Below are positions 22,513 to 60,191 of a DNA stretch of 64,000 bases, piece after piece. Made by a program: the position numbers and the translations under genes. This DNA comes from Candidatus Hadarchaeales archaeon (GTDB lineage Archaea; Hadarchaeota; Hadarchaeia; Hadarchaeales; WYZ-LMO6): assembly GCA_038736355.1 (NCBI GenBank), contig JAVYML010000001.1:180908-244907 (forward strand). Direction: 5' to 3'. Positions within the stretch are counted from its first letter, which is position 1. Each line of letters begins with the position of its first letter. The notes below the pieces were generated by a model, which saw only the letters and a program-made list of their open reading frames with translations, searched no databases and had not been told where the DNA came from.

Positions 22513-24228
22513 ATGGTTACCTACAGTGACCGTCCATGGATTAAAATTTATGAGCAAATAGGTCTTCCCTATAAATTCGACTATCCCAAGATACCACTTT
22601 TCGAACTCATCGATCGGGCGGCTGCGGAGTATCCCGAAAGCAAAGCCATGGTGTACTTCGATAGGGAGTATACCTATGCCCAGTTGAAGTCCTACACGGA
22701 TCGGCTGGCCACGGCCCTTAGCAAGAAGATGGGGATAAAGAAGGGGGATGTGGTGGGAGTACAGCTCTTCAACTCTCCCCAGTTCATCATAGGAGTCTAC
22801 GGTTCCTTAAAGGCCGGGGCCATTGTAGCCCTCATGAGCCCCCTCCTCCCCACCCCGGAGTTGGAGTACGAGATCAGCACTTCTGGCGCTAGGGTGGTCA
22901 TTACCGACGAGTCCAGAGTGGAGGAAATAAAGGCCATGAAACACCGCACCAAGCTGGAACAAATCATTGTTACCTCCGTGAAGGATTTCTCTCCCTCGGA
23001 AGATCCCGTGCCTCCGAAGGTGGAAGGAGCCATCCAACTGCGCCAACTCCTCTCGGAAACGGAAGCGGACCCGCCCAAGCTGGAAATAGATCCGGTAGAA
23101 GATGTTGCCCTCCTCTTCTTCACCGGGGGTTCCACCGGCATTCCCAAGGGGGTGATGCTCACCCACTACAACCTCACCACCAACATCGTCCAAACCTTCG
23201 GTCCTACGGCGGCAGGTATGCTGGAACCGAACAAAGGAAACTTTTCGGTGATGGGATGTCTGCCCTTCTTCCACATTTATGGTTTCACTTGCGCCATGAA
23301 CGTGGCCCTTTATTGGGCGGGATGCCTCCTGCTCGTTCCCGATGCCAGAGATACGAAGATGATTTACGAGCTACTGGTAAAATACCGTCCCCTTTTGATG
23401 CCCGGGGTTCCTACCCAATTCATGAGGTTGCTCCAAGAAAAGAATGTGGACCTTTCCGAACTGAAGGGATGTGTACCCTATAGCGGTGCTGCTGCCCTTC
23501 CCCCAGAGGTTTCCAAACAATTTGAGGAGAAAGCGGGTGTATTGGTCAGCGAGGGTTATGGGCTTTCGGAAGCCAGTCCCGTCACCCATTCCAACTTCGT
23601 GGCCATCCTCAAGGGTGCGGGGATCGATCTTGGGTTACCGGTAAAGCTGGGATCCATAGGCATACCCGTGCCCGATACGGATGTTAAAATAGTGGACATA
23701 GAAACGGGGACGAAGGAAATGCCCGTGGGGGAGCCAGGGGAAATGATCATCAAAGGACCACAGATAATGAAGGGTTACTGGCCCACCCCGGGCAGTGGTT
23801 TAAGGGATGGATGGCTGTATACGGGGGATGTGGCGAAGATGGACGAAGATGGCTACTTCTACATCGTCGACCGCACGAAAGACATGATCAACGTCTCGGG
23901 TTTGAAGGTCTATGGAAGGGTGGTGGACGATGTTCTCTACGAACATCCGGCTGTGGCCAAGGCAGCTGCTGTGGGCATACCCGATCCCGAGCGCCCCGGA
24001 AGCGAAAGGGTGAAGGCCTTCATCGAACTAAAGGAAGGATACGAACCCAGCGAGGAGCTGAAGGAGGATATTCTCAGACATTGTAGGGAGAGGCTTCCGC
24101 CCTACGCCGTCCCCAAATTCATAGAATTCAGGAAGGAACTTCCCCTTACCGTTACAGAGAAGGTTTTCAAACGGAAGCTCAGGGAAGAAGAAATAGAGAA
24201 GATGAAGAAGGCTGGGCTCCTTAAGTAA
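22513..24228 (+). CDS. AMP-dependent acyl-CoA synthetase/ligase
   Basis: 571 aa; AMP-binding motif FFTGGSTGIPKGVMLTHYN, YGLSE, GWLYTGDV. TATA-like TTTTTTATAGGGG sits about 40 nt upstream. Confidence 0.9.
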   Translation: MVTYSDRPWIKIYEQIGLPYKFDYPKIPLFELIDRAAAEYPESKAMVYFDREYTYAQLKSYTDRLATALSKKMGIKKGDVVGVQLFNSPQFIIGVYGSLKAGAIVALMSPLLPTPELEYEISTSGARVVITDESRVEEIKAMKHRTKLEQIIVTSVKDFSPSEDPVPPKVEGAIQLRQLLSETEADPPKLEIDPVEDVALLFFTGGSTGIPKGVMLTHYNLTTNIVQTFGPTAAGMLEPNKGNFSVMGCLPFFHIYGFTCAMNVALYWAGCLLLVPDARDTKMIYELLVKYRPLLMPGVPTQFMRLLQEKNVDLSELKGCVPYSGAAALPPEVSKQFEEKAGVLVSEGYGLSEASPVTHSNFVAILKGAGIDLGLPVKLGSIGIPVPDTDVKIVDIETGTKEMPVGEPGEMIIKGPQIMKGYWPTPGSGLRDGWLYTGDVAKMDEDGYFYIVDRTKDMINVSGLKVYGRVVDDVLYEHPAVAKAAAVGIPDPERPGSERVKAFIELKEGYEPSEELKEDILRHCRERLPPYAVPKFIEFRKELPLTVTEKVFKRKLREEEIEKMKKAGLLK

Positions 24229-24246
24229 AAAAAGAAAGAAAAAAGT

Positions 24247-24818
24247 TCAAACGTATTCGTCCACGAAGATCGTTGGCACTTGTGAAGCGATCTTTCCCAT
24301 CTGTTGCGTCGCCTTGATGTACCTCATCACCTTGCTCATGTCTCCCTGGAGTTTCATCTTGCCAGTGAGCACCAGCTTGGTGGCATCGCTCTCGGCCTTC
24401 GCCAGCTTCTTCCAAGAATCGTAAGAACCTATCAGTTTGAAGCCCACCTGCACCTCGTTGGGATCCTTCAGCAGGCGCATACCCGTGCACTTCCCATCCT
24501 TGAGCCCGACGTACACATAGATGGTCTTCCCTTTCAGGTATTCCTTCATGACGGCCTTGAATTCCTCCTGGATTTTCTTGGCCTCCTCAAAGGTAATTCC
24601 TGCCTTTTCCGCGAGCTGCTTGATTTCCGCATCAGACATCGTTTCCGCCTTCTGCAACTTTTCCACGGGGACCTCGTCTATCTGGAAGATGAAATCTCCG
24701 TTCCATCCCACGCCCCATCCCTTGCCAGCCTCGGCCATTACCGGATCGCTGTTAAGTCTTTTGACATATTCCTCGTTCCAAGCTTGGGTTCCAAAAGCCA
24801 ACTTTGTCATTCTCATCC
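24247..24818 (-). CDS. SCP2 sterol-carrier-like domain protein (paralog A)
   Basis: Start taken at MRMTKLAFGTQAW (ATG 24818); the track ORF extends to 25077 through an unlikely His/Gly-rich extension. Shares GKGWGVGWNGDFIFQID...LTGKMKLQGDMSKVMRYIKATQ with paralog B. Confidence 0.6.
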
Positions 24819-24908
24819 CCCTTTTAGGCTTCCTACACCTCCATAAATACCCTTCGGGACTCCCCTCTGGAACTTCAAGGGAAAAAAGAAAAAAGGGAAA
24901 AACTATGT

Positions 24909-25406
24909 TTAGACCATCTCGTCCAAGAATTCCGTCGGAATCTGTGAAGCGATCTTTCCCATGAGCTGCGTCGCCTTGATGTACCTCATCACCTTGCTCA
25001 TGTCTCCCTGGAGTTTCATCTTGCCAGTGAGCACCAGCTTGGTGGCGTCTGCTTCTCCCTTCGCCAGCTTCTTCCAAGATTCATAGTCTCCTATTAGCTT
25101 GAAACCGGCTTGCACTTCGTTGGGATTCTTAATGACCTTCGCACCCGTACACTTCCCATCCTTCAGACCTATCCAAGTATATACCGTGGTACCAGAGACA
25201 TACTTCTCCATCATTTCCTTCATGTACTTCTTCAGATCCCCTTCGGGCAGTTGCTCTATTTTCTCCACTGGCACCTTGTCTATCTGGAAGATGAAATCTC
25301 CGTTCCATCCCACGCCCCATCCCTTGCCTGCTTCTTCCAGTTCTTTGCTCTCATTCAGTTTCTTGACATATTCCTCGAGCCATTCAGGTGTCGGAAAAGG
25401 TACCAT
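24909..25406 (-). CDS. SCP2 sterol-carrier-like domain protein (paralog B)
   Basis: 165 aa; two exactly identical DNA tracts of about 80 nt and 52 nt shared with paralog A (24305-24384 vs 24967-25046; 24676-24727 vs 25278-25328). Confidence 0.6.
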   Translation of the reverse strand: MVPFPTPEWLEEYVKKLNESKELEEAGKGWGVGWNGDFIFQIDKVPVEKIEQLPEGDLKKYMKEMMEKYVSGTTVYTWIGLKDGKCTGAKVIKNPNEVQAGFKLIGDYESWKKLAKGEADATKLVLTGKMKLQGDMSKVMRYIKATQLMGKIASQIPTEFLDEMV

Positions 25407-25469
25407 TCGTCCACCTCTTTTTTTGGTTTACACTTTTCTTTCAGTCCATCCTCTATAAAACCTTTCCCT

Positions 25470-26078
25470 TCAAACTTTCTCTTTAACCAAAAGTTTGGGA
25501 AGGAGTTTCATGAGGGGCGCAAGCCTCATCGCGTCTGCTACCTTACCTTCCACCTTGTATCTACCCATTAAAGCACCCCAGATGGGATCCACCTTTCCCG
25601 TCAGGAGCCCCATCAAATCCGCGGTAGAGGCAAAGACGGTGAGATCTGCCATCATCGCTCCCCTTCCACCCCCAGACAGTTTTCCCTCACTCACCTTGAA
25701 GTGACCAACCATGGGAGAATCCGTTGCTTTGAAGTTCACAATGAGAGTTTTCATTTCCTCTAGCTTTTTCCTGATCTCGGGATCCTCCTCAGCCAAAACC
25801 CCCAATCCTTCCCAAAGCACATCCAGAAATCTGGAGGAGGCTTGAGGTACTTCCCTCACAAAGCTCGCCAAATCCAGCGTTTCCATCTTCTCCACCATCT
25901 TGGAGAGGAGATCGGGAACGGCCCTCAGGAATTCCCTCACCCCTACGCTCTGAATGGTATCCATCAAAAAGGAAAGACTAGACTTCAGTTCTTCCTCTGA
26001 TAGAGTTAGGGCCCCTTCCACCACCGATCTGAGGTCCTCCCCCACTCTCTCCGATAGGATTAATTGGCGCCTCCTCAT
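25470..26078 (-). CDS. helical N-domain + C-terminal SCP2-like domain protein
   Basis: 202 aa; C-terminus GKLSGGGRGAMMADLTVFASTADLMGLLTGKVDPIWGALMGRYKVEGK is SCP2-like. Confidence 0.5.
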   Translation of the reverse strand: MRRRQLILSERVGEDLRSVVEGALTLSEEELKSSLSFLMDTIQSVGVREFLRAVPDLLSKMVEKMETLDLASFVREVPQASSRFLDVLWEGLGVLAEEDPEIRKKLEEMKTLIVNFKATDSPMVGHFKVSEGKLSGGGRGAMMADLTVFASTADLMGLLTGKVDPIWGALMGRYKVEGKVADAMRLAPLMKLLPKLLVKEKV

Positions 26079-38169: not shown

Positions 38170-38260
38170 TGGTCCCGCGGGGGAGATTTGAACTCCCGAC
38201 TTGCCGGTCTCGGCCTTGGGTCTACAGCCGGCCGCTCTAACCAGGCTGAGCTACCGCGGG
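38170..38260 (-). tRNA. tRNA-Tyr(GUA) with 13-nt canonical (37/38) intron; C1:G72; CCA encoded
   Basis: Minus strand CCCGCGG-TA-GCTC-AGCCTGGTTA-GAGC-G-GCCGG-CTGTAG[ACCCAAGGCCGAG]A-CCGGC-AAGTC-GGGAG-TTCAAAT-CTCCC-CCGCGGG-A-CCA. The C1:G72 pair is the archaeal/eukaryal Tyr identity element. Confidence 0.8.
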
Positions 38261-41880: not shown

Positions 41881-43089
41881 ATGGGAGCCCCTGCTCCGGA
41901 GCGTCTCTCCCGATACAGGAAGCTCGAAAGGGAGTTCGGGAGGGAGGGAATCATCAACCTGAACCCCATTCAGAGGGGAGGCATCCTCACCCCCGAAGCC
42001 AGAAGGGCCTTGATGGAGTTCGGTGACGGATACTCTGTCTGCGACTGGTGCCCACCCAAGACCCCAAGGCTGGATCGAATCGAAAAACCACCCATTGCAG
42101 ACTTCCTCGAGGACCTGGCGGAGTTTCTCCACTTGAAGGTGGCAAGGGTGGTTACGAGGTGCAGGGAAGGAAAATTCATCGCCTTTTCCTCCCTGGCCTC
42201 ACCGGGGGACTGGGTGGTGGTGGACAGTCTTGCCCACTACTCCACTTACCTCGCCGCCGAACTCGCCCATCTGAAGGTGAGGGAGGTTCCCCATTCGGGC
42301 CCTCCGGAGTTCAGGATTTCCCCCGAAGCCTACGGGGAGACAATAGAGAGGATAAAAAGGGAAACGGGAAAGCCCCCCGCCCTCGTCCTCCTCACCCATG
42401 TGGATTCCTTCTATGGCAACCTAGCACCGGCGGAAGAGGTGGGAAAGCTCTGCCAAGAACAGGGTATCCCCTTTCTCCTGAATGCCGCCTACACCGCAGG
42501 GGTGATGCCCGTGGATGGGGAGAAGTTGGGGGCGGATGTCCTGGTGAGTAGTGGACACAAAAGTTGGGCTGCCAGCGCACCCACGGGTATCCTGGCCCTA
42601 GGGGAAGGAGTAGCGGAGAGGGTCCTTCGAAGATCCGAGATCAAGGGGGACTGGAGCGGCAGGTCCTTCCCGGAGAAGGAGCTGGCCCTTTTGGGATGTA
42701 CGGTAATGGGAGCACCCCTCGTTACTCTCATGGCCTCTTTTCCCCATGTGGTGGAAAGGGTGAGGGGCTGGGAGGAGGAGGTGAAGAAGGCAAGGTATCT
42801 CGTGGGGGAGCTGGAAAGGATAGAGGGAACAAGACAACTGGGAGAAAGACCCAAGAGGCACACACTGGTACAAATGGAATCTGAGGGTTTCTACAAAGTT
42901 TCCCAGAAGCATCGCAGAAGGGGTTTCTTCCTCTACGAGGAGCTGAGGGAAAGGGGAATCGTGGGAATCCAACCGGGGCTCACGAGGCACTTCAAGCTCA
43001 ACACGTACGGGCTCAAATGGGAAGAGGTGAAGTTCGTGGCGGAAAGCTTCTTGGAAATAGCCAAAAAATATGGCCTTGCCATCACCTAA
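41881..43089 (+). CDS. PLP-dependent fold-type-I enzyme, probable Sep-tRNA:Cys-tRNA synthase (SepCysS)
   Basis: 402 aa; INLNPIQRGGILTPEA N-terminal motif and SSGHKSWAASAPTGIL (PLP-Lys) resemble SepCysS. A cysteine-desulfurase-like alternative is not excluded. Confidence 0.55.
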   Translation: MGAPAPERLSRYRKLEREFGREGIINLNPIQRGGILTPEARRALMEFGDGYSVCDWCPPKTPRLDRIEKPPIADFLEDLAEFLHLKVARVVTRCREGKFIAFSSLASPGDWVVVDSLAHYSTYLAAELAHLKVREVPHSGPPEFRISPEAYGETIERIKRETGKPPALVLLTHVDSFYGNLAPAEEVGKLCQEQGIPFLLNAAYTAGVMPVDGEKLGADVLVSSGHKSWAASAPTGILALGEGVAERVLRRSEIKGDWSGRSFPEKELALLGCTVMGAPLVTLMASFPHVVERVRGWEEEVKKARYLVGELERIEGTRQLGERPKRHTLVQMESEGFYKVSQKHRRRGFFLYEELRERGIVGIQPGLTRHFKLNTYGLKWEEVKFVAESFLEIAKKYGLAIT

Positions 43090-43919
43090 GTGCCCACGAG
43101 GAGGATTTCTACAAGGTCCCTGAGCCTCATGATGGCGGAAAGGGCGGCGAGATAGCTCGTCTTCGGGTTGCCGGGGGAGGGGATGTTCCTCGCTATCGTT
43201 ATCATTTCTCCTGCCTCCCCCACCACCCTCAACTCGTGCACGTTCTTGTCCAAAGAGGGATCCGCTATGATCTTCACCTTCAATTTGTCGAAGCCTATTC
43301 CTGCCAAAGCCAGGGTGGCGGCGATGTTCACGCTTTCCGGAAAGGCCTTGACTGCCTCCCTCGCCGTCCCCTCGAAGACCACCGTTGGTTCCCTCACCCT
43401 CGAGAGATCCATTCCCCTTTCCCTCAGATAGGGACTGTAGGAGAGGGCAACGGGTGGTTTCCTCGTGATGAGCTGTGCCTCCTTAATACCCACGAGCTGT
43501 GCGGCCTTAACCCCATCCACCCCCAAGATGGATCCGGAAGGAAGATGGATCCTGCTTCCCCCCTTCCTCGCTGCTTCCAGTAGTCTTTTGAGCAACCCCT
43601 CATCGGCAAGGGCACCCACGCTCATCACCATTAAATCCTTTCCCGCTTCTAGGATGCGCTCTCCGTATTCAGCCACGGCGGCTTGGGAGGCTGCTTCCAC
43701 TACCACGTTGGTCCCGGGATCGGAAAGGATCTCCTGCAGGTCTCCCGCCACCCTGAACCCCAGCTCTGAAGCCAACTTCCTGCTTTTCTCCCCATCCCTG
43801 TCGAAAAGGAATCTCAATTCCACCCTTCCCGCCCTTCCTTCCTTGATTGCCCTAGCCAAGACACTCCCTATTTCCCCACATCCTATGAGGGAAACTCCAA
43901 GGTACTTAGAAGAGACCAA
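43086..43919 (-). CDS. nadX: L-aspartate dehydrogenase
   Basis: 277 aa; Rossmann N-terminus VSLIGCGEIGS, DUF108 core. Confidence 0.8.
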   Translation of the reverse strand: MVSSKYLGVSLIGCGEIGSVLARAIKEGRAGRVELRFLFDRDGEKSRKLASELGFRVAGDLQEILSDPGTNVVVEAASQAAVAEYGERILEAGKDLMVMSVGALADEGLLKRLLEAARKGGSRIHLPSGSILGVDGVKAAQLVGIKEAQLITRKPPVALSYSPYLRERGMDLSRVREPTVVFEGTAREAVKAFPESVNIAATLALAGIGFDKLKVKIIADPSLDKNVHELRVVGEAGEMITIARNIPSPGNPKTSYLAALSAIMRLRDLVEILLVGT

Positions 43920-44647
43920 AGCCCCTCACCTTCATCCTTCTATCTATCCTTCTTTAATCCTACCGTTTTGAAGGAAACGGGCTTTTCTAGGAAAAAGCGC
44001 CGAGAGAGCAGGGGTAAGGAAGGGATCCTCTTGCACCCCAGTACCACAAAACCCGACATGGACGAAACCGGAGAATATAAGGGCAATCTTCAGGATAGCC
44101 GAAACCTTCTAAGATTTCTGGCGAGAAGGATTGAGCCCCTTCTCCAACCGGAGTTTTCTTCGGTGGACTCCAAAGGGATCCCGACGAACTCCTACGGCAG
44201 GAAGAGGAGGGTCCTGGGGTAGAGAGGAAGAAGGTTTTCAAGCTCTGCGCTCGTCGGCTGCTCTCTTGAAGAGCCCTTTTCATCAAGCCTCTGTAACGGG
44301 AGAAAGTTGGCAAGACCTCACGCAGGTCGGATGCTGCTCGAAGCGACGGAAGACCACTTCTTGCGGACTCCACTTACGATCATCTCTCTCCCAGGCTTGC
44401 CAAGGACCGCGCGGGCTTGGGGATGGTTGGAAGCTTAGACCTGAACTTATAGACTGAAAAAGGTTGCGGAGGGGCTTTGCAACCAGATACCTTCCAAGGA
44501 TAAGATACCAGGCTCCTCACGCTCAGGAGTGCTCCATTCTCCTGATGGCCGTTGGGGGCTGCCAAGAACAAAATTAGAGGCTTGCTCAAACTAGCCCTAA
44601 ACTAATTTTTCGACAGACCTTTAAATTTAAATACCCCTGAAAGAGTT

Positions 44648-47600
44648 TTGTTTGTGCAAGCAAGAATTAAAAATGATAAGCTGAGCATCCTTTTTGCATT
44701 ACTTTTAATATCGCTTCTCTCCCTCTCTTCTCTGTTCTTGACTCTGTCCTCTGTGAGAACGGTTTCCGCATCTCCGGACCCACATGCTCCGATATACATA
44801 GAGGGGGATGGAAATTTCAAACCGGCAAACGGCGTTCGCAGTGGTTCTGGAACCAAAACCGATCCCTACATCATCGAGAACTGGGAAATCGATGCTTCCA
44901 ACGCCCACGGGATCCACATTAAAAACACCACCGCGTATTTCGTGATCAGAAATGTGCTGGTTGAGAACGGGAAGACTACTTACCATGGGATTTTTCTGGA
45001 AAATGTGGTCAACGGCAGGATCGAAAACGTGGTGAGCCGGAAAAACTCTAGAGGCATCTTTCTCTCTTACTCCAACAACATCCGCCTCTCAACCAACACC
45101 GTGGAGAACAACAAATACGGCATCTATCTCTACTGCTCCTCCAGAAACGAACTCTGGAACAATATCGTGAGGTACAACGAAAATGGCAACATCTATCTCC
45201 TCTCCTCCAACAACAACACCTTCTTCTCCCCCAACACCGCGGGAAACGGCAGATACGGCATCTACCTCCACTCCTCCGACAACAACACCTTCCTCGGCAG
45301 CACCGTGGAGAACAACAGATACGGCATCTATCTCTACCACTCCTCCAGAAACGAACTCTTGAACAATATCGTGAGGTACAACGAAAATGGCAACATCTAC
45401 CTCATCTCCTCCAACAACAACACCTTCTCCCACAACACGGTGAGGAATGGCGGGAGCATTTATCTCGACTTCTCCGACAACAACACCTTCTCAACCAATA
45501 CCGTGGAGAACACCTTCATAGGTATCCACCTCCACTCCTCCGACAACAACACCTTCTCAACCAATACCGTGGAGAACAACACCTACGGCATCTATCTAGA
45601 CAATTCCGGCAACAACACCCTCGCTAATAACACCGTGAAAAACAACCGGGGACATGGCATCCGTCTCGACTCCTCCGACAACAACATCCTCACCAACAAC
45701 ACCGTGGAGAACAGCGAGGAGGGCATCTACTTCCGCTCCTCCGACAACAACACCCTCACCAACAACACCATGAAAAACAACTGGTCGGAGGGCATCTATC
45801 TATACAACTCCGACAACAACACCCTCACCAACAACACCGTGGGAAACAACGGGTCGAAGGGAATCTATCTCAACTCCTCCGACAACAACACCTTCTCAAC
45901 CAATACCGTGGAGAACAACGCCCGTGGCATTTATCTCTATTACTCCTACAGAAACACCCTCTCAAACAACAAGGTGGAGAATAACTCTACAGGTATCTAT
46001 CTCGACTCCTCTGACAACAACACCCTCACCAACAACACCGTGGGAAACAACGGATCGGAGGGCATCTACCTCCGCTCCTCCGACAACAATACCCTCACCA
46101 ACAACAGGGTGGAGAACAACTTTATGGGTGTCTACCTCGTAGGCTCCTCTAATATCACAATGGACAACAACGTAATGAGGTCCAATCGCTGTAACTTCCT
46201 GGTATTCGGTGATAAGCTCTCGCACTTCATCCACGACATCGACAATACTAACACCGTGAACGGGAAGCCAGTCCTCTACTTAACCGGGACCGAGAACAAC
46301 CTCGTGATAAATCAGGATAACCGGGTAGGCTGGCTGGGTGTGGTAAATTCCAACAACATACAGGTGGAGAACCTCGTGGTCGAGACTGTTATGCTTGCGT
46401 TCACGCACAACACCAGGGTAGAGAATGTGATCGTCGAGAACTCATTAGTTGGCATCTATCTCTTCTCCTCCTCCAACAACTTCCTCTTAAATAACACCGT
46501 GGGGAACAACATGGAGGAAGGCATCCATCTCCACTCCTCCCACAACAACATCCTCTCAAACAACATCGTGAGGAACAACCAGTTGGGAATTGGAGTTGAG
46601 AATGGCAATCTGTTGGTTATTTCCCACAACGTTATTGAGAACAACTTGATCCGGGATATCGAATTTGATGGAAAAAATTCGGTTTTTGAGGCCAACGTCT
46701 ATACAACAGCAAGAGGCATTCCCCATATACATTCAGTTTGTGTTACAGACATCACGCAGACATCCGCAACGATAACCTGGGCTACCGATAAGAACTCAAC
46801 AAGTGTTGTCGAATACGGCCCAACAGCGGCATACGGATACACGGCCACGGACGGTGTGACGACCAACCATCGGGTGGACCTCTCCAACCTTTCACCCGGA
46901 ACCTATCACTTCCGCGTCCTTTCAACCGACAGCGAAAACAACCTCGAGATATCGGGGGACTTCACCTTCACGACGATTTCCCTACCAACATCCATAACGC
47001 TCGAACCATCCTCCTTCTCCCTGGTCTCAGGAGGTTCCAGGGAGATAACGGCCATCCTGAGGGACAACGGGGGAAACCCACTTTCCGGAAAGACGATATC
47101 GTGGAGCACAACCGCTGGAACAATAACCCAGACAAGCATGACGGACAATCTTGGGAGGGCAACCGCAACCTTCACGGCTCCCGTCGTCACGCAAATGGAG
47201 AATGTGACGATTACGGCAACCTTCGCGGGGGATGCCGGCTACGGGGGGAGTCAGGAAAATGCCTTATGTACGGTCTCTCCCGTTCCCTCCACCCCAACAA
47301 CCTTGACGGTTTCACCGTCAAGTTTCACCGTCAGAGTTGGCGGAAGGATAACCCTAACCGCAATCCTCTTGGATAACGCTGGAAATCCGCTCCCAGGAAA
47401 GCAGATAGTTTGGAGCACGACTTCCGGTTCGATTGAACCTATGATAGGTCTCACGGACAACCACGGGAGGATGGAGGTAACGTTTTTCGCACCATCGGTC
47501 AGCGGGTCCGTTGAAATCGGAGTTATTTTCCAGGGAGATTCAGTGCATGCCAGAAGCCAGGCGATAGGTGTGGGTACCGTGTCCCAGCCTCGACCGGGGA

Positions 47601-47680
47601 CCAGGCCATGGATTCCGGTAGCTGTGATCGTCATCATAGTCCTCCCCACTGTTTTCTTTTTCCTCAGGAGAAAGAGGTAA
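44648..47680 (+). CDS. large secreted/membrane-anchored surface protein: signal peptide, about 20 parallel beta-helix (PbH1) repeats rich in N-x-S/T sequons, FN3 domain, two Big-like Ig domains, C-terminal TM anchor + RRKR
   Basis: 1010 aa; N-terminus MFVQARIKNDKLSILFALLLISLLSL...; 22-aa repeats SSDNNTFSTNTVENNxxGIYLxx; FN3 SATITWATDKNSTSVVEYGPT; Ig-like LTVSPSSFTVRVGGRITLTAILLDNAGNPLPGKQIVWSTT; C-terminus PRPGTRPWIPVAVIVIIVLPTVFFFLRRKR. Lower GC than its neighbours; TTG/GTG start. Confidence 0.85.
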   Translation: MFVQARIKNDKLSILFALLLISLLSLSSLFLTLSSVRTVSASPDPHAPIYIEGDGNFKPANGVRSGSGTKTDPYIIENWEIDASNAHGIHIKNTTAYFVIRNVLVENGKTTYHGIFLENVVNGRIENVVSRKNSRGIFLSYSNNIRLSTNTVENNKYGIYLYCSSRNELWNNIVRYNENGNIYLLSSNNNTFFSPNTAGNGRYGIYLHSSDNNTFLGSTVENNRYGIYLYHSSRNELLNNIVRYNENGNIYLISSNNNTFSHNTVRNGGSIYLDFSDNNTFSTNTVENTFIGIHLHSSDNNTFSTNTVENNTYGIYLDNSGNNTLANNTVKNNRGHGIRLDSSDNNILTNNTVENSEEGIYFRSSDNNTLTNNTMKNNWSEGIYLYNSDNNTLTNNTVGNNGSKGIYLNSSDNNTFSTNTVENNARGIYLYYSYRNTLSNNKVENNSTGIYLDSSDNNTLTNNTVGNNGSEGIYLRSSDNNTLTNNRVENNFMGVYLVGSSNITMDNNVMRSNRCNFLVFGDKLSHFIHDIDNTNTVNGKPVLYLTGTENNLVINQDNRVGWLGVVNSNNIQVENLVVETVMLAFTHNTRVENVIVENSLVGIYLFSSSNNFLLNNTVGNNMEEGIHLHSSHNNILSNNIVRNNQLGIGVENGNLLVISHNVIENNLIRDIEFDGKNSVFEANVYTTARGIPHIHSVCVTDITQTSATITWATDKNSTSVVEYGPTAAYGYTATDGVTTNHRVDLSNLSPGTYHFRVLSTDSENNLEISGDFTFTTISLPTSITLEPSSFSLVSGGSREITAILRDNGGNPLSGKTISWSTTAGTITQTSMTDNLGRATATFTAPVVTQMENVTITATFAGDAGYGGSQENALCTVSPVPSTPTTLTVSPSSFTVRVGGRITLTAILLDNAGNPLPGKQIVWSTTSGSIEPMIGLTDNHGRMEVTFFAPSVSGSVEIGVIFQGDSVHARSQAIGVGTVSQPRPGTRPWIPVAVIVIIVLPTVFFFLRRKR
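45060..46150 (+). repeat. in-frame tandem 66-nt coding repeats (beta-helix rungs), several copies near-identical at the DNA level
   Basis: Recurrent ctcctccgacaacaacaccttctcaaccaataccgtggagaacaac and ...ccctcaccaacaacaccgtgg... units. Confidence 0.75.
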
Positions 47681-48186
47681 GGATGAAAATTGAAAGACCT
47701 CAAAAACAGTTTTTAACACTGACTGGATGATGGACTGAAGAGAATTACACGAAAAGGGAAATGATAAAAACACATTCGAGTCTGGCGTGACGATTTTTTA
47801 CGAAATTCATTTTGACAAAATCCGAAGAGGCTGAAGCTTTTATAAGGGCGATACCCCTCGATACAGAAGCGGAGCTTGAAAGGAGGTCTATTTTGAGGTA
47901 CCGTTTCGGGTAGCTTTTGAAAATTTAGACGAAAGGGTGAATTGGGTGATGTTGCTAGGCTGTATACTAAAATCCAAGGGAGGGACCGTGGGCTCAAAAG
48001 GGGGAAGTGGGACTCAACCTGAGGATCTGTGCTGAGATTGATGGCAGGGCAGGATACGGGAGCGAGTTAGCCGTTCTACCTCTCAAAATACGTCCTTTTT
48101 TCCTGAGAATCGAGGCGGAAAGTCTGAGCTCGAAGGAAACGAATAAAAAAAGCTGATTCAAAATAGGAAGGGTACAGAGGGAAAAG

Positions 48187-50502
48187 ATGGGTCTGTACAT
48201 CCAAAGGCTGGAGGAACTGGGAAAGGAAGACTTGCCCAAAGTAGGGGGAAAGGCCGCCAACCTGGGGGAAATGTATAACGCGGGACTACCCGTTCCCTAC
48301 GCCTTCGTGATAAACACCAGGGCCTACCAGGAGTTCGTGGAGAAAAACGGCCTCTGGAAGAAGATCAGGGAAATCCTCACGAATACGGACGTGGACAATC
48401 CCTCGGAACTGGAGAAGAACACCGAAAGGCTCCGTTCCATGATAGAGAGTTCGCCCATTCCTCCCGAGATAAAGGAGGAAATCCTTGAGGAGTACAGAGA
48501 ACTCTCGAAGAGGTTCGGGAAGGAAGAAGAATACGTGGCGGTGAGGAGCTCCGCCACGGCTGAGGATGTCCCAGATGCCTCCTTTGCCGGGCAGCAACTT
48601 ACCCTCCTCAACATCAAAGGGGAAGAGGAACTGCTGGAAGCCGTGAAGAAGTGTTGGGCTTCCCTCTTCACCTCCCGAGCAACCTTCTATAGGGCCAAGA
48701 AGGGTTTCGAACACGAAAAGGTGCTCATCGCCCTCGTGGTGCAAAAACAGCTGGGGATGCTGCGGGAAGAGGAATACCTACAGGGAAAGTACAAGGCCGG
48801 AGTGGGTTTCACCCTCCACCCCTCGACTGGGGATAGGAACAAAATCGTGGTGGAGGCCTCTTGGGGTCAGGGAGAAGCCGTGGTTTCAGGATTGGTGACA
48901 CCCGATACCTACGTTTTGGATAAAAAAACGGGGAAGGTGGTGGAGAAGCACATCTCCTTCAAATCCAGAATGGCCGTGGTCTCCCCCGATGGTGGCCTGA
49001 GGAAGAGGGAGGTACCGGAGGGGATGGCCGAAGGGGAATGTCTGACTGAGGAGGAACTCAAGCAACTCTGGGAACTCGCCCTAAAGTTGGAGAACCACTA
49101 TCGCACCCCCCAGGACTTCGAATGGGCGAGTGAGAACGGCAGGGTTTTCCTGCTCCAAACCAGGCCCGTGACCGTCTTCTACGAGGAGAGGGCGATGGAG
49201 GTGGAAGTAAAGCATCCTCCCCTCCTGAAGGGCCTTCCCGCTTCACCCGGGGCGGCCATAGGAACCGTGAGGATCGTGAGGAGTCCGAGGGAGGCCTCCG
49301 AGAAACTCAAGAGGGGAGAAATCTTGGTCACGGAAATGACTTCTCCGGACTGGGTACCTTACATGAAGATAGCCTCCGGCATCATCACCTCCGAGGGAGG
49401 GATTACCTCCCATGCCGCCATCGTCTCGAGGGAACTGGGGATCCCATGCATCGTGGGGGCAAAGGATGCCCTGAAGGTCCTCTCCGATGGAATGGTGATC
49501 ACGCTCGATTCCAGGAAGGGGCTAGTCTATGCGGGTGAAATCCCCGAACTGATCGCGAGGGAAAAGGCCCTAGAAGTATCACCGGAGGAAGTGAGGGGAC
49601 TCAAGACCAAGACCAAGATCCTGATGAACTTGGGCGAACCGGACGAGATAGGGAGGTACAAGGACCTCCCCTTCGAAGGCATAGGACTGATGAGGGTAGA
49701 GTTCATCATAGCCAGCTGGGTGGGAAAACATCCCAATTATCTGTTGGAAGAGGGTAAGGGGGAGGTCTACACCGAAAAGCTGGCCGAGGGAATAGCGAGG
49801 GTGGCGGAGGCCATCTATCCCAGGTTCGTGGTGGTCAGGTTCTCCGATTTCAAAACCAACGAATACAGGGAACTGGAGGGTGGGGAGAAGTACGAACCCA
49901 TGGAGGCCAACCCCATGCTCGGCTGGAGGGGGGTTTCCCGCTACATCAGTCCCCAGTTCGAACAGTCCTTCAGGCTGGAGTGCAGGGCCATCAAGAAAGT
50001 GAGGGAAAGGGGACTGGACAACGTTTGGGTAATGCTTCCCTTCGTGCGCACCGTTTGGGAAGTGGAGAGGTGTTTGCAAATCATGAGGGAGGAAGGACTG
50101 GAAAGGGGGGAGAACTTCAAGGTCTGGTTGATGGCGGAGGTTCCAAGCATCGTCTTCCTGGCGGAGGAATTCTCCAAGTTGTGTGATGGCTTCAGCATAG
50201 GGAGCAACGATCTAACCCAGCTGGTCTTGGGTGTGGATAGGGACTCCGGGATCTTGGCCAACATGGGATATTTCGACGAGAGGAACGAGGCCGTGAAGAG
50301 GGCGATCGAGGAACTGATAAGGAAGGCCCATGCAAATGGGGTGACGGTCTCCATCTGTGGTCAGGCCCCCAGTGTTTATCCGGAGTTCACGGAATTCCTG
50401 GTGAGGTGTGGAATAGACAGCATTTCCGTCAACCCAGATACCGTGGCCAAAACCAAGCTCCTGGTATATCAGGTGGAAGAGAAGTTGAAGTCCGAAAAAT
50501 GA
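48187..50502 (+). CDS. ppsA: phosphoenolpyruvate synthase (pyruvate, water dikinase)
   Basis: 771 aa; N-terminal ATP-grasp KVGGKAANLGEM; phospho-His domain ITSEGGITSHAAIVSRELGIPCIVG; C-terminal PEP-utilising TIM barrel. Confidence 0.9.
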   Translation: MGLYIQRLEELGKEDLPKVGGKAANLGEMYNAGLPVPYAFVINTRAYQEFVEKNGLWKKIREILTNTDVDNPSELEKNTERLRSMIESSPIPPEIKEEILEEYRELSKRFGKEEEYVAVRSSATAEDVPDASFAGQQLTLLNIKGEEELLEAVKKCWASLFTSRATFYRAKKGFEHEKVLIALVVQKQLGMLREEEYLQGKYKAGVGFTLHPSTGDRNKIVVEASWGQGEAVVSGLVTPDTYVLDKKTGKVVEKHISFKSRMAVVSPDGGLRKREVPEGMAEGECLTEEELKQLWELALKLENHYRTPQDFEWASENGRVFLLQTRPVTVFYEERAMEVEVKHPPLLKGLPASPGAAIGTVRIVRSPREASEKLKRGEILVTEMTSPDWVPYMKIASGIITSEGGITSHAAIVSRELGIPCIVGAKDALKVLSDGMVITLDSRKGLVYAGEIPELIAREKALEVSPEEVRGLKTKTKILMNLGEPDEIGRYKDLPFEGIGLMRVEFIIASWVGKHPNYLLEEGKGEVYTEKLAEGIARVAEAIYPRFVVVRFSDFKTNEYRELEGGEKYEPMEANPMLGWRGVSRYISPQFEQSFRLECRAIKKVRERGLDNVWVMLPFVRTVWEVERCLQIMREEGLERGENFKVWLMAEVPSIVFLAEEFSKLCDGFSIGSNDLTQLVLGVDRDSGILANMGYFDERNEAVKRAIEELIRKAHANGVTVSICGQAPSVYPEFTEFLVRCGIDSISVNPDTVAKTKLLVYQVEEKLKSEK

Positions 50503-57167: not shown

Positions 57168-60100
57168 CTAGCCGGGGAAAGGACAGGTCCTCGTGGGGCA
57201 TCCCCCCGCATACTCCGCTTCGGCCGCCACGAACTTCGCCTCCCTTCCTATGTAAAGCACCTGCTCCGGTTTGCTCCCATAGCGGAAAATCGTTACCCCC
57301 TTGCACTTGAGTCTCCAAGCTAGCTCGTAAACCCTTTCCACCTCCTCCACGGTGGCTTCAGAAGGAAGGTTGACGGTCTTCGAAACAGCGTTGTCGGTGT
57401 ATTTCTGGAAGGCGGCCTGCATCCTCACATGCCACTCGGGGGGGATGTCCAAGGCAGTGACAAAGATCCTCCTGAGGTCCTCCGGAACCCCTTCCACCCC
57501 GCGGAGGGATCCGGTCTTGGCTATTTCTTCGAGAAGCTTCGCACTGTAAAAACCCCTTTCCTTGGCCATGAGCTCGAAGAGGGGATGGATTTCGAAGAGC
57601 TTCCTTCCCCCCAGCACCTTCCTAATGAAAGAGAGGGCGAAGATGGGTTCTATCCCGGAAGAACATCCGGCGATGATGCTTATGCTCCCCGTCGGGGCTA
57701 TGGTGGTCACGGTGGCGTTCCGCATGGCCCCATACCTATCCTTCCAGATGCTCCTTTCGAAGTTGGGGAAGGAACCGCGCTTTTCGGCCAATTCCACCGA
57801 CTTCTTGCGTGCTTCTTCCGAGATGAAGCGCATCAATTTCTCCGCCAGCCTCAGTGCCTCCTCCGAATTGTAGGGGATACCCAATTTGATCAGCATATCG
57901 GCAAAACCCATGACCCCCAATCCTATCTTCCTGTTGGCCTTGGTGATTTCCTCTATCTCCCTGAGCGGGTACCTGTTGGCATCTATGACGTTGTCCAGGA
58001 AGTGAACGGCGCTTCTCACCGTCTTTCCCAGTTTCTCCCAGTTCACTTCTTTCCCCTCCACCATCCTCGAAAGGTTGATGGAGCCCAGGTTGCAGGATTC
58101 GTAGGGCAGGAGGGGCTGTTCCCCACAGTTATGCACACAGAAGCCGTTGGCATCGAAGAGGTTCACACCCGGGACCCTAACATCGAAGACCTCTTCTCGA
58201 CCCTTGAAGACAAGGCTTTCTACGGTGGCCAGGAAGCGTCCCCCCTCCATCCCCCCCTTGTAAAGGCTGAGAAGACGTTCCAAGCGTTCCCTTTTCTTCG
58301 GGTCTCCAAAGCCTATTTTCCGGGCGAAAACGAGGAGATCTTCCCCGGAAATAACCAGCTCGCGCACCCTTCCTTTGCGGATTTTCGAATATATCCCGAA
58401 CCTGAGGAGAATGCGCTGTACTGCCCTCAAAATCTCCAAGTTGCTCTGCACCAATCTCACACTAACACCCTTCCGTTTACTTCCCCGAACCGAACCATTG
58501 ACATCGAACAGTCCCCTAACCAAGCCCCTACAGAAGGCCGAAGAGGCCTTTTCCATCGGAACGGTGATCCTCCTTTCTCCTGGCCTCAGCCCCATTTCCC
58601 TCGCAAGTTTCTCCAAGGAATCTGATCCGTTGGGCAGTTTCTTCATACGGGCGTGGGTAAGGTCCTCCACCCTTCCCTCCTTCCCGTCGCCCAAGAAGAG
58701 ACCCACCAAATAGCCTTCCTCGAAGGTGAATTTTCCCTCCCAAGAAGTCACAACCCGGTTGCGGTTCAAAAGTACCTTATCCCCCCTCTCCAGTTTTCCC
58801 GCCGGTACCCACTCCATTTCCCTCGCGCATCCCGTCCTTCCCTTGACCCTGAGAACGGGATGATCCCATGTAAGACAAACCTCGAACCCTTCCCTCGTAA
58901 TCAGCCTGTAAACCGGCCTCACTCCAGTCCTGAAGAATCCCTCCTCCGTAGTTTCCCACTTCCCCCCATTCGCCACGACCACGAACTTTTTCCCGATGAG
59001 GTCCCTTACCTGTCTAGGTCCCTCTTCTGTCATGACCCAAGTGTAGACGGGCACACATGGGTTGGTAGCCTCTATCCTACCCACTCCAGGCGTGGGGTTG
59101 TGGCGGTTGATTTCGTCTATGAAGATCACTCCGGGATCTCCGCTCGCCCAGGCGGACTCTGCCATCAACTTCCAAACGCTCCTAGCCCTCAGTTTCTCCA
59201 CCCTCTCCCCGTTCCTGGGATTGATGAGCCAGTATTCCCCGTCCTCTTCCACCTTTTCCATGAACTCGTCCGTGACGGAGACGGAGAGGTTGAAGTTCTG
59301 TAGAAAGGTGTAATCCCTCTTACAGGTGATGAACTCCAGGATATCTGGATGGTCCACCCTAAGAATCCCCATCATGGCACCCCTTCTCCTCCCTCCCGCC
59401 TTGATGACCTCAGTTGTGATGTCGAAGATCCTCATGAAGCTTACCGGTCCCGAGGCCACACCCATCGTCGATTTCACCAGGTCCCCTTTGGGTCTGAGCC
59501 TGGAGAAGTCGAACCCCACACCCCCACCGCTCTTCTCTATGATGGCCATGTTCCTCACGGCCGTGAGAATACTTTCGAGGGAGTCTTCCACAGGAAGGAC
59601 GAAACAGGCGGAGAGCTGCCCCATTTCTGTCCCTGCGTTGAAGAGGGTAGGGGAATTGGGAAGGAACTCCAAACGCGCCATCATTCCGTAAAAGATTCGC
59701 TCGCTCTCCTCAGGATCCTCACCGTAGTTTCTATCTACCCCAGCTACGGCCTTCGCCACCCTTGAAAACATCTGCTGGGGTGTCTCGACGACTCTTCCCG
59801 TCTCATCCCTCAAAAGGTATCTACTGCGGAGGACCTCCAGGGCATTGACCGTAAGCTTGGGCTCGGGAATCCCGAGGCTCTGTCTCAACCTCCTTATCTC
59901 CTCTTTCTTCTCCCTGTACGATTGATATTCCTCCGCCACCCTTTCATAACCCCTCCTCCTCAGAACCTCCACAACCGCATCTTGGGCATCCTCCACGGAG
60001 GGTATCCTTTCCCTGAACCTCTCCTCCAGCATCCTTACCACCTCCCTGGTAACCTCCTCTGCTTTTTCCCCATCCTCCTGCTCCACGGCTATGAAGGCCC

Positions 60101-60191
60101 TATGAACGGCGTCCCTGATTTTGCTGGGATCGAAATCTACCAGCCTTCCGTCCCTCTTTTTTATCTTCTGAATTGGCATATCCAAAATCAT
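57168..60191 (-). CDS. nrdJ: ribonucleotide reductase, class II (adenosylcobalamin-dependent, NrdJ-like) with N-terminal ATP-cone and one intein
   Basis: 1007 aa; ATP-cone [16 protein letters not shown]; catalytic ATNP^[intein]^[19 protein letters not shown]; C-terminal Cys pair. Confidence 0.9.
58128..59057 (-). mobile_element. intein (310 aa) with LAGLIDADG homing-endonuclease domain inserted in the RNR active-site motif
   Basis: Begins Cys (NP|CVPVYT...), ends ...FCVHN|CGEQ; the C at +1 is the RNR cysteine of the NPCGEQ motif. LAGLIDADG blocks [13 protein letters not shown] and [12 protein letters not shown]. Boundary codons were verified on the sequence. Confidence 0.85.

Follow-up and report, generated by a model that had tools for sequence, protein, structure and literature searches.

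A surface-protein gene lies between decayed IS5-type insertion sequences in the nadX-ppsA spacer of a Hadarchaeales archaeon and was probably gained by IS-mediated insertion

Two long gaps flank an adhesin-like surface-protein gene in the 64-kb stretch of Candidatus Hadarchaeales DNA analysed here (the window), and both contain remnants of one family of insertion sequences (IS). We consider it probable that the gene was gained through IS activity: an IS-bounded unit of 4,153 bp entered the spacer between nadX and ppsA, and its IS parts decayed afterwards, so that the gaps are now mostly dead transposon DNA. Such a route would be an ordinary one for gaining a gene, and the gaps are unlikely to conceal an RNA gene. 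An earlier note on this DNA had named scars of horizontal acquisition among the candidate contents of the gaps, and that proposal agrees with the IS5-family remnants, the 9-bp target duplication and the empty sites in relatives described below.

The order nadX, gap, adhesin, gap, ppsA was borne out by Pfam searches and translation (Table 1). The left gap (43920-44647) measures 728 nt and the right gap (47681-48186) 506 nt, with the surface-protein gene between them; according to gene calls on conspecific contigs, they are the biggest spacers of the neighbourhood that are free of RNA genes. Further big gaps in the crude list of open reading frames (ORFs) are artefacts; for example, 20402-21394 on the minus strand is a real gene. 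The region had been described as a low-GC island, and it is indeed the lowest-GC 4.15-kb stretch in the window (0.497 vs 0.561). GC contents of 0.511 (left gap), 0.500 (adhesin gene) and 0.437 (right gap) compare with 0.560 for the window. The value of the 4,152-nt block is the minimum for its size across the window (mean 0.561, sd 0.027); 1.5% of such blocks have a GC content as low, and every one of them overlaps it. Codon usage of the adhesin gene is atypical as well, and the low GC of the island reflects its foreign origin. The island and both junctions are present in at least eight independent assemblies of the same species, which rules out an assembly artefact. Neither gap contains an intact ORF with host-like codon usage or a Pfam match. 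The earlier view that the gaps hold no convincing ORFs, only junk, is right as to intact ORFs, but the reading frames taken for junk in the left gap come from a disrupted transposase gene.

Table 1. Features of the nadX-ppsA region (positions in the window)
Feature	Position	Strand	Basis or remark
nadX (aspartate dehydrogenase), left neighbour	43086..43919	-	Pfam Asp_DH_C and NAD_binding_3
Ancestral spacer, left part (nadX promoter side, conserved TTTAA motif)	43920..43969	.	Alignment (see text)
Left copy of target-site duplication, 9 bp, GAAGGAAAC	43970..43978	+	10 bp long if the G at 43979 is counted
IS-A, decayed IS5-family (ISH1-like) element	43979..44619	+	nhmmer; IRL begins GGGCTTTTC, right end ...TTCGACAGACC
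DDE transposase (PF01609) pseudogene in IS-A	44100..44582	+	Protein homology search, tblastn, family profile
TATA-like box TTTAAATTTAAATA, putative adhesin promoter	44620..44633	+	Read from sequence; abuts IS end
Adhesin-like surface protein, 1010 aa	44648..47680	+	Pfam and translation
AT-rich stretch after adhesin stop, GC ~0.42	47681..47976	.	Without assigned origin
IS-B, 3'-terminal fragment, same IS family, orientation of IS-A	48006..48131	+	nhmmer, blastn, Smith-Waterman
Right copy of target-site duplication, 9 bp, GAAGGAAAC	48132..48140	+	Aligned to AAGAAAAC(G) at the empty sites in L002 and L008
Ancestral spacer, right part	48141..48186	.	Aligns with L002, L008, L003 and L010
ppsA (PEP synthase), right neighbour	48187..50502	+	Pfam PPDK_N, PEP-utilizers, PEP-utilizers_C

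The ends of the reference IS were set by comparison of the copies in L087, L090 and L092. Intact copies of the family (L096/L097 and L102) are 1036-1044 bp long, carry 18-nt terminal inverted repeats (TIRs; GGGGTTGTCGAATAATTC) and are flanked by perfect 9-bp target-site duplications (TSDs), CCGTGAGCC in L096/L097 and GATGTTTTA in L102. The family comprises 62 proteins and is essentially restricted to Hadesarchaea/Hadarchaeales metagenome bins. Its transposase has transpos_IS5_2 as the best NCBIfam match (72.4 bits, E 4e-20), below the cut-off of 140 bits, and the nearest annotated relative, found by tblastn, is ISTth7, a member of the ISH1 group of the IS5 family (900-1150 bp, 8-bp DR; PMC6352166). 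With the ISH1-group IS5 elements of Thermus and haloarchaea it shares a single ORF for a PF01609 DDE transposase of ~305-320 aa with an IATRY-type C-terminal motif, a size of ~1.04 kb and short TIRs, and the TSDs measure 9 bp in the Hadarchaeales members and 8 bp in the ISH1 group (PMC6352166 Table 2). It differs from them in an amino-acid identity of only ~30% and in that the copies in the window are dead.

The element in the left gap, IS-A, was found by nhmmer with two different queries: the L087 IS matched 43985-44109 (E 1.7e-16) and 44107-44586 (E 3.5e-66), and the L093 IS matched 43977-44109 (E 1.5e-13, extending to the IRL) and 44105-44555 (E 1e-65). IS-A is of the ~1.04-kb type; 216 nt of the reference are missing, and both ends are recognisable. 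Its terminal inverted repeats are retained in degenerate form (IRL, GGGCTTTTCTAGGAAAAA; IRR, ...TTTTTCGACAGACC): the IRL is identical to that of L093 at ~13/18 positions, with small deletions just inside it, and the right end can be aligned with the IRRs of the family. A protein homology search with the left gap returned P0122, a Ca. Hadarchaeales transposase (Pfam PF01609), and P0121. Its DDE transposase (PF01609, DDE_Tnp_1) survives as a pseudogene only, disrupted by the 216-nt deletion and by frameshifts; it is spread across three frames, with an in-frame TAG at 44220-44222 and the N-terminal ~70 aa gone. The tblastn segments show 58-62% identity across 60 aa, the D, D and E motif residues are visible in SVDSKGI, LLADSTYD and KVAEG, and the family profile (37 members) matches the gap in frames +2 and +0. 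Among strains, indels of 1, 2, 4, 4, 5 and 59 nt occur inside IS-A, none of them a multiple of 3, and one conspecific strain has CAG in place of the TAG; these changes are neutral decay. What had been read as GC-rich hairpins in this gap (44198-44221 and 44259-44278) is transposase coding sequence (YGRKRRVLG and VGCSLEEP). Judged from these alignments, the IS accounts for the whole of the left gap.

The second remnant, IS-B, covers ~125 nt at the end of the right gap, ahead of the repeat and the ancestral spacer, and may begin near 47977. With the L093 IS as the nhmmer query, 48006-48131 corresponded to IS positions 894-1014 (E 1.3e-8); a blastn comparison with L093/L094 gave E 4e-9, and the Smith-Waterman score was 45, the best of 268 other window segments reaching 34. 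The homology was missed by nhmmer with the L087 copy as the sole query. The outer boundaries of the unit are the IRL of IS-A on the left and, on the right, IS-derived DNA in which no IRR is recognisable; because IS-B ends at 48131 (...GTCTGAGCTC) in this way, a canonical transposase-competent right end is at best putative. IS-A and IS-B are only ~60-65% alike over their overlap; they either represent separate lineages or are copies of great age. The ~300 nt between the adhesin stop and IS-B (47681-47976) gave no protein-profile match and no Pfam match, differ between strains by a single 4-nt indel, and may represent a 3' UTR or flanking DNA from the donor.

A comparison with relatives, suggested in the earlier note, showed nadX and ppsA directly adjacent, without an insert, in three other Hadarchaeales species (L002, L008 and L010); in a fourth, L003, an unrelated gene occupies the spacer. 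Homology of the window to L002, L008 and L010 stops at 43965-43979 and restarts at about 48132-48180. On the nadX side, DNA identity to L002, L008 and L003 is 75-77% as far as about 43965-43968, and ppsA is 78-89% identical to its Hadarchaeales orthologues (85-89% for Hadarchaeales MAGs, 78% for the more distant L010). On the left, what remains of the ancestral spacer can be aligned with the spacer in L002 and L008 (~80 nt) and also with that of L010; the right part holds a conserved TATA-like sequence of ppsA, AATAAAAAAAG, at 48143-48153. In the spacers of L002, L008 and L010, the target site is empty and the duplicated sequence is present in a single copy.

The perfect repeat GAAGGAAAC(G) brackets the 4,153-bp unit (43979-48131) between the two divergent promoters. 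In its 10-bp form, GAAGGAAACG, it has just two occurrences on both strands of the 64 kb (expected 0.22), at 43970-43979 and 48132-48141, and each copy lies where homology to the empty sites breaks off. The length of the repeat is that of the 9-bp TSD made by intact family members. IS-A alone has no TSD: TTTAAATTT follows its right end, and the second copy of the repeat is met only after IS-B.

The passenger protein, a putative adhesin, contains a beta-helix (NosD), a Pur_ac_phosph_N-like domain and two Big_1 domains, and its signal peptide and C-terminal TM predict a secreted, membrane-anchored surface protein. The gene is intact in every strain, with a 66-nt repeat-unit indel among strains. 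Outside the species, the nearest homologues are ~40% identical and have other genomic surroundings, and a search among 5.8 billion proteins gave no such orthologue with more than ~43% identity. The TATA-like box lies 14-28 nt upstream of the start codon (TTG 44648 or GTG 44654) and, by its sequence and position, may serve as the adhesin promoter. It comes right after the IS end, and the 640 nt upstream are therefore IS DNA and not a leader. The suggestion of long structured 5' and 3' UTRs is accordingly not borne out for the left gap, while the right gap may hold a 3' UTR within the ~300 nt that follow the adhesin stop. In the protein, plasmid and phage collections searched, the 4.15-kb unit was found at no second locus and in no other organism.

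The gain of the adhesin cassette probably proceeded as follows. In the ancestor, nadX and ppsA would have been divergent neighbours, with about 40-80 nt between them carrying both promoters. In the lineage of this species, the 4,153-bp unit would have inserted exactly between the two promoters, duplicating 9 bp of the target (GAAGGAAAC). The unit, which appears to have moved as one piece, would have consisted of IS-A (of the ~1.04-kb type), the adhesin gene with its own TATA box, ~300 nt of flank and the 3' end of IS-B. Either the whole unit transposed, as a composite or one-ended element, via the left end of IS-A and the distal end of IS-B, or an IS-carrying circle recombined into a resident IS. 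Later, the IS parts would have decayed by deletion, by frameshift and by the gain of a stop codon, whereas the adhesin gene remained intact. Because IS-A and IS-B are dissimilar, the composite-transposon variant loses weight, as does that of homologous recombination.

The unit resembles the composite transposons Tn5, Tn10 and Tn903 in having IS-derived DNA at both ends of the passenger gene and in that one duplication of IS-typical length surrounds the whole unit, not a single IS, with the site empty in relatives. Unlike in those transposons, the IS copies of the window are direct-oriented and differ from each other, only ~125 nt from the 3' side of the distal copy are left and show no recognisable IRR, the unit has no known second copy, and the passenger is a surface adhesin of an uncultivated archaeon rather than a resistance gene. 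In one-ended units of the ISEcp1/ISCR1 type, the IS bypasses its own end and uses a surrogate end downstream (PMC3316993). Similarly, the IS in the window still has its own right end, followed by passenger DNA, and the partner of the duplication is found only beyond the distal, poorly matching end. ISEcp1 belongs to the IS1380 family, whereas the window element is IS5/ISH1-like, and one-ended mobilisation is here what we infer from the layout. That an ISH1-like IS5-family element moved the adhesin gene as one 4.15-kb unit, passing over its right end in favour of a surrogate end farther out in the manner of ISEcp1, is a tentative and rather unlikely reading of our analysis. If true, it would be the first documented one-ended, IS-driven passenger-gene capture in Archaea, and an IS end would now provide the context of the adhesin promoter; as an addition to this reading, the 300-nt AT-rich stretch would encode a new regulatory RNA.

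A stepwise history, to which we give a minor chance, would start with a lone IS whose insertion made the 9-bp duplication; the adhesin gene and another IS would have entered this resident IS later, through recombination, whether homologous or illegitimate, or through nested transposition, and deletions would have followed. Same-orientation IS at both ends would be expected if an IS-bearing circle had integrated into a resident IS, and the dissimilarity of IS-A and IS-B is what different origins predict. Nested or tandem IS ends of the family, in the form of IRR-spacer-IRL junctions, occur elsewhere (L090 and L093), and partial IS copies act as recombination targets in the ISTth7-rich megaplasmids of Thermus (PMC6352166). 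However, this history needs more events than a single transposition, as well as the subsequent loss of most of one IS, and a hybrid IS junction is not recognisable. On the present data it is indistinguishable from the one-step model.

Very improbable, in our view, is that the gaps lack ORFs because they hold an unannotated structured RNA (SRP RNA, RNase P RNA, a C/D box sRNA or a new sRNA), as the earlier note had considered. The lack of intact ORFs and the ~300 nt of the right gap without assigned origin would fit such an RNA, but the Rfam scan proposed along with it was negative: at gathering thresholds only a 5S rRNA and one tRNA were found in the whole window, both away from the gaps, and a permissive scan (E<=10) of 43700-48400 gave chance-level matches only. 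Folding energies in the gaps were no better than those of shuffled sequences (MFE z-scores of -1.09, -0.62, +0.44 and +0.72, the last two for 47681-47976). The reported GTGACGA...CTGA boxes do form a C/D-like arrangement at 47787-47834 (GTGACGA-12nt-TTCA-3nt-TGACAAA-11nt-CTGA), but one that requires 1+2+3 box mismatches; at this threshold there are 3 matches in the window and 0-3 per strand in shuffled sequence, which is the chance level. Moreover, the left gap is accounted for by the IS, and the gap sequences are missing in sister species, where essential RNAs would be conserved.

It is also hardly credible that the island is ancestral and was lost in L002, L008 and L010, the gaps being old, decaying local DNA. 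A deletion between 9-10-bp direct repeats would leave one copy, as is seen in these relatives. Against this stand the empty site in three distinct species, one of them the more distant L010, and the different insert in L003; moreover, the repeat abuts the IS terminal repeat and has the TSD length of the family, the GC content and codon usage of the island are foreign, and other Hadarchaeales have no orthologue of the adhesin. An integrase-type island or provirus remnant, with the 10-bp repeat as the att core of site-specific recombination, could draw on the short perfect direct repeat on both sides and on an open frame across the circularised junction, but is largely refuted and extremely unlikely, with no viral gene present, no integrase homology in a six-frame Pfam scan, no nearby tRNA by ARAGORN or Rfam, no match in phage or plasmid collections, and a junction frame whose left-gap part (84-aa ORF, 43968-44222) has transposase homology and whose right-gap part has no homologue.

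For gain by way of an IS, a parallel is offered by the megaplasmids of Thermus, in which a nitrate respiration island lies beside ISTth7 (PMC6352166). In both cases the IS belong to related families, IS copies, whether complete or partial, serve as places where new traits land or recombine, and the setting is that of a thermophile; the Thermus island is a multi-gene megaplasmid island transferred by conjugation, whereas the window holds a single-gene cassette in a chromosomal spacer.

The 4,153-bp block between nadX and ppsA (43979-48131) is best explained as an IS-mediated acquisition of a surface-protein gene. The two long gaps described in the earlier note on either side of this adhesin gene are indeed present, and gene calls on conspecific contigs showed that they are the largest nearby spacers without an RNA gene; further big "gaps" in the window were artefacts of crude ORF calling. 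The GC content of the left gap is 0.511, that of the adhesin gene 0.500 and that of the right gap 0.437, compared with 0.560 for the window, and the lowest-GC stretch of 4.15 kb in the window is this block, in keeping with the low-GC island noted previously. A second low-GC stretch (0.49), at 24001-26000, holds two SCP2-domain ORFs, 24247-25077 (-) and 25470-26078 (-), beside an AMP-binding enzyme. A codon-usage log-odds scan found a host-like frame nowhere in the island, and foreign pseudogenes are not excludable in this way, as the adhesin itself scores near 0 (foreign).

Features of the nadX-ppsA region, with positions in the window
Feature	Position	Strand	Length
nadX (aspartate dehydrogenase)	43086-43919	(-)	
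Left gap	between nadX and adhesin gene		728 nt
Adhesin: signal peptide, NosD/beta-helix repeats, Pur_ac_phosph_N-like domain, two Big_1, C-terminal membrane anchor	44648-47680	(+)	1010 aa
Right gap	between adhesin gene and ppsA		506 nt
ppsA	48187-50502	(+)	

ppsA is 85-89% identical to its orthologues in Candidatus Hadarchaeales and Hadesarchaea MAGs. In the nearest other species (loci L002 and L008), nadX and ppsA are directly divergent with a spacer of ~80 nt, and homology of the window to these loci ends at ~43965-43979 and restarts at ~48132-48180. The spacer is also empty in the more distant locus L010 (ppsA identity 78%); these three loci answer the question, raised in the earlier note, whether the two genes are adjacent in relatives. 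In a further species (L003; QNVD01000152, 3159-4669), the spacer contains another gene, a 347-aa ORF (3221-4264, minus strand) with a weak pectinacetylesterase-like match (24.2 bits, below the cut-off), and a four-copy IS profile in nhmmer detected no IS remnant at this place. The adjoining 101-aa ORF (4261-4566) has a start that looks like a signal peptide, which suggests a frameshifted secreted protein. Since the spacer is empty in L002, L008 and L010 and holds a different gene in L003, the block was gained in the lineage of the window, and inserts have landed repeatedly in the nadX-ppsA promoter spacer. An identical nadX protein was found on 14 contigs (NCBI MAGs and Logan assemblies), and the island is carried at ~99.4% identity by all eight of the places retrieved from them, and therefore is real and fixed in the species. 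Compared with conspecific loci, the window lacks a 66-nt (22-aa) beta-helix repeat unit after 46057, present in L077 and L079, and 59 nt after 44561, near the 3' end of the left-gap IS, present in L077-L080, L082 and L084; seemingly large differences in L079 are a run of N.

The left gap carries a decayed, probably IS5-family (ISH1-like) element, IS-A (43979-44619). A Pfam scan covering the gaps' ten longest frames gave no match and missed the transposase pseudogene, and comparing the translated gaps with every ORF of 76 related loci gave nothing. The longest reading frame, extended by conspecific strain L083 and the circularised junction, was used as the query against 5.8 billion proteins and matched two, one of them annotated "transposase [Candidatus Hadarchaeales archaeon]" (PF01609). 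In tblastn, the transposases mapped to 44100-44582 across three frames, with an in-frame TAG and with the neighbourhoods of the DDE motif still recognisable. The limits of the reference IS (L087, about 228-1279) were set from a comparison of copies in different flanks; nhmmer with this element or the L093 copy matched the left gap at E 1e-13 to 1e-66, the alignment spanning from the terminal repeat at ~43977/43979 to 44586. A 216-nt internal deletion has removed the transposase N-terminus, and the repeat at the right terminus (...TTTTTCGACAGACC) extends to 44619. Conspecific strains differ in IS-A by indels of 1, 2, 4, 4, 5 and 59 nt, and the stop codon is CAG in one of them, differences that read as a pattern of neutral decay. 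The two GC-rich hairpins that the earlier note saw in this gap turned out to be transposase coding sequence. An SSV-type split integrase, rejoined by circularising the island, was rejected, as the 137-aa frame crossing the junction has transposases, not integrases, as homologues.

At E<1e-5, 62 proteins belong to the transposase family; almost all of them come from Hadesarchaea/Hadarchaeales bins or from metagenome contigs of ~1.1 kb. The family's best NCBIfam match is the IS5 family, with a score below the cut-off, and among the annotated elements of the plasmid collection Thermus ISTth7 (~30% identity) comes closest, followed by haloarchaeal copies. ISTth7 is assigned to the ISH1 group of the IS5 family (900-1150 bp, 8-bp direct repeats; PMC6352166). 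L096/L097 and L102, intact copies of 1036 and 1044 bp for which both flanks could be read, are bounded by terminal repeats of 18 nt (GGGGTTGTCGAATAATTC) and by perfect duplications of 9 bp (CCGTGAGCC and GATGTTTTA). The rule for the target-site duplication (TSD) was read from L096 and L102, the copies in L087, L090, L092 and L093 being nested, truncated or at a contig end. The ends may resemble those of IS903, which has a 9-bp TSD. A full-text literature search on Hadesarchaea transposases gave a single, unrelated paper and no description of this Hadarchaeota IS family. At L090 ~2393-2425 and L093 ~2395-2440, sequence resembling the IS right end is followed by a 5-7-nt spacer and an IS left end; these are insertions of the family nested in, or in tandem with, one another, or possibly circle junctions. 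Two metagenome contigs have 1,379 identical nt in common (L091 1-1379 and L092 722-2100); this stretch ends in a solo 190-nt IS 3' fragment, adjoining a GHMP-kinase-like gene (read from sequence) and a second host ORF. Immediately past the IS end the two contigs differ, an arrangement suggesting either a solitary remnant of an IS end or a break of the assembly at the repeat.

In the right gap, 48006-48131 (~125 nt, perhaps from 47977) is homologous to IS positions ~894-1014, the 3' part, in the same orientation. Its Smith-Waterman score was 45, compared with a maximum of 34 in 268 other window segments; blastn against L093/L094 gave E 4e-9, and nhmmer in a whole-window search E 1.3e-8. It escaped nhmmer when the query was the L087 IS by itself or the four-copy profile. 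Since it was found only by the L093 copy in nhmmer, blastn and Smith-Waterman, we rate this putative IS 3' fragment (IS-B) as probable, not certain. IS-B is nearer to the L087/L093 type than to IS-A, and it ends at the same IS coordinate where the L093 copy loses homology, with no recognisable terminal repeat. L087 has two tandem stretches resembling the right terminal repeat (IRR) at ~1237-1279, AGAAGTTTGGGCCCC then ATTTATTCGACAAGCCCC, the inner of which is the stopping point of both the L093 copy and IS-B. At the protein level, the family profile HMM found no second transposase remnant in six-frame translations of the right gap; recurring minus-strand tblastn matches at 47737-47943 are weak and were treated as noise. 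An inverted match between the gaps, TTCT(C)AGGAAAAA(A)G, was dropped, because the segment in the right gap proved to derive from the IS 3' part and to be directly oriented.

Searched on both strands, the 64 kb contain just two copies of the 10-mer GAAGGAAACG (0.22 expected), at 43970-43979 and 48132-48141, which are both homology breakpoints, and once one copy is removed the sequence aligns with the uninterrupted spacers of L002, L008 and L010. Outside the insert, TTTAA on the nadX side and (G/A)ATAAAAAA on the ppsA side are conserved, so both housekeeping promoters were spared. Read by the 9-bp rule, the left boundary is GAAGGAAAC followed by GGGCTTTTC... (the left terminal repeat, IRL) and the right boundary is ...GAGCTC followed by GAAGGAAAC; the tenth base of the repeat is the first G of the IS. 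IS-A alone is without a duplication, its right flank reading TTTAAATTT. A repeat search found no convincing terminal inverted repeats across the island.

The simplest reading is a single insertion of the 4,153-bp IS-bounded unit, followed by IS decay. IS-A, the adhesin cassette and the IS-B end would have inserted together between the two promoters, making the 9-bp duplication typical for the family, and the IS parts would have decayed afterwards. The unit could have moved as a compound transposon, or as a one-ended unit whose transposase used a distal surrogate end, in analogy to ISEcp1/ISCR1 (PMC3316993). Against unit transposition, the IRR is missing at 48131, IS-A and IS-B are dissimilar, and no second copy of the unit was found by the protein search or in the phage and plasmid DNA collections, which gave no match to the island. 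A possible alternative is stepwise, a resident IS recombining with an IS-bearing circle; its end product would be identical, nested IS ends of the same family exist (L090 and L093), and adjacent rearrangements have been described for IS903-type relatives (PMC11708052). As to the donor, the closest relatives of the adhesin outside the species are ~40% identical and adjoin MoxR/DUF58/transglutaminase genes on unrelated contigs.

The earlier note had offered an ncRNA, long UTRs or scars of horizontal acquisition as contents of the gaps; the last was right and is now made precise as IS remnants. Rfam gave no match in the region at gathering or permissive thresholds, and neither gap had a significant MFE z-score on either strand. 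The GTGACGA...CTGA element fits the C/D sRNA layout only at 1+2+3 box mismatches, where the scan gave 3 matches in the window versus 0-3 per strand in shuffles; its two putative guides are UUUUUUACGAAA and AUCCGAAGAGG. The ncRNA and long-UTR readings are unsupported, apart from the residual ~300 nt past the adhesin stop, which have a GC content of 0.42, no match in protein-profile or Rfam searches and no excess of structure (z +0.44 and +0.72). The adhesin start lies only 28 nt from the IS-A end, and TTTAAATTTAAATA within these 28 nt is plausibly an archaeal TATA box of a leaderless or short-leader mRNA. Elsewhere in the window, Rfam reports an 88-nt tRNA at 38173-38260 (-), which is probably an intron-bearing archaeal tRNA; ARAGORN found no tRNA anywhere in the window.

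The process is familiar and changes no general principle; its setting is an archaeal phylum of which little is known, with an apparently undescribed IS5/ISH1-like family. An apparently "dark" non-coding region becomes a readable history, that of a dated and polarised gene gain in an uncultivated lineage of archaea from the subsurface or hot springs, and the trait exchanged is the cell-surface repertoire. The Hadarchaeota-restricted IS family is now defined by its ends, size and 9-bp TSD. The pseudogene also calls for caution in annotation, being invisible to Pfam frame scans and revealed only by close unannotated relatives. Outside the island, the 1007-aa ribonucleotide reductase large subunit at 57168-60191 (-) probably contains an intein, because it has intein-splicing and LAGLIDADG Pfam matches (gene table of locus L001).
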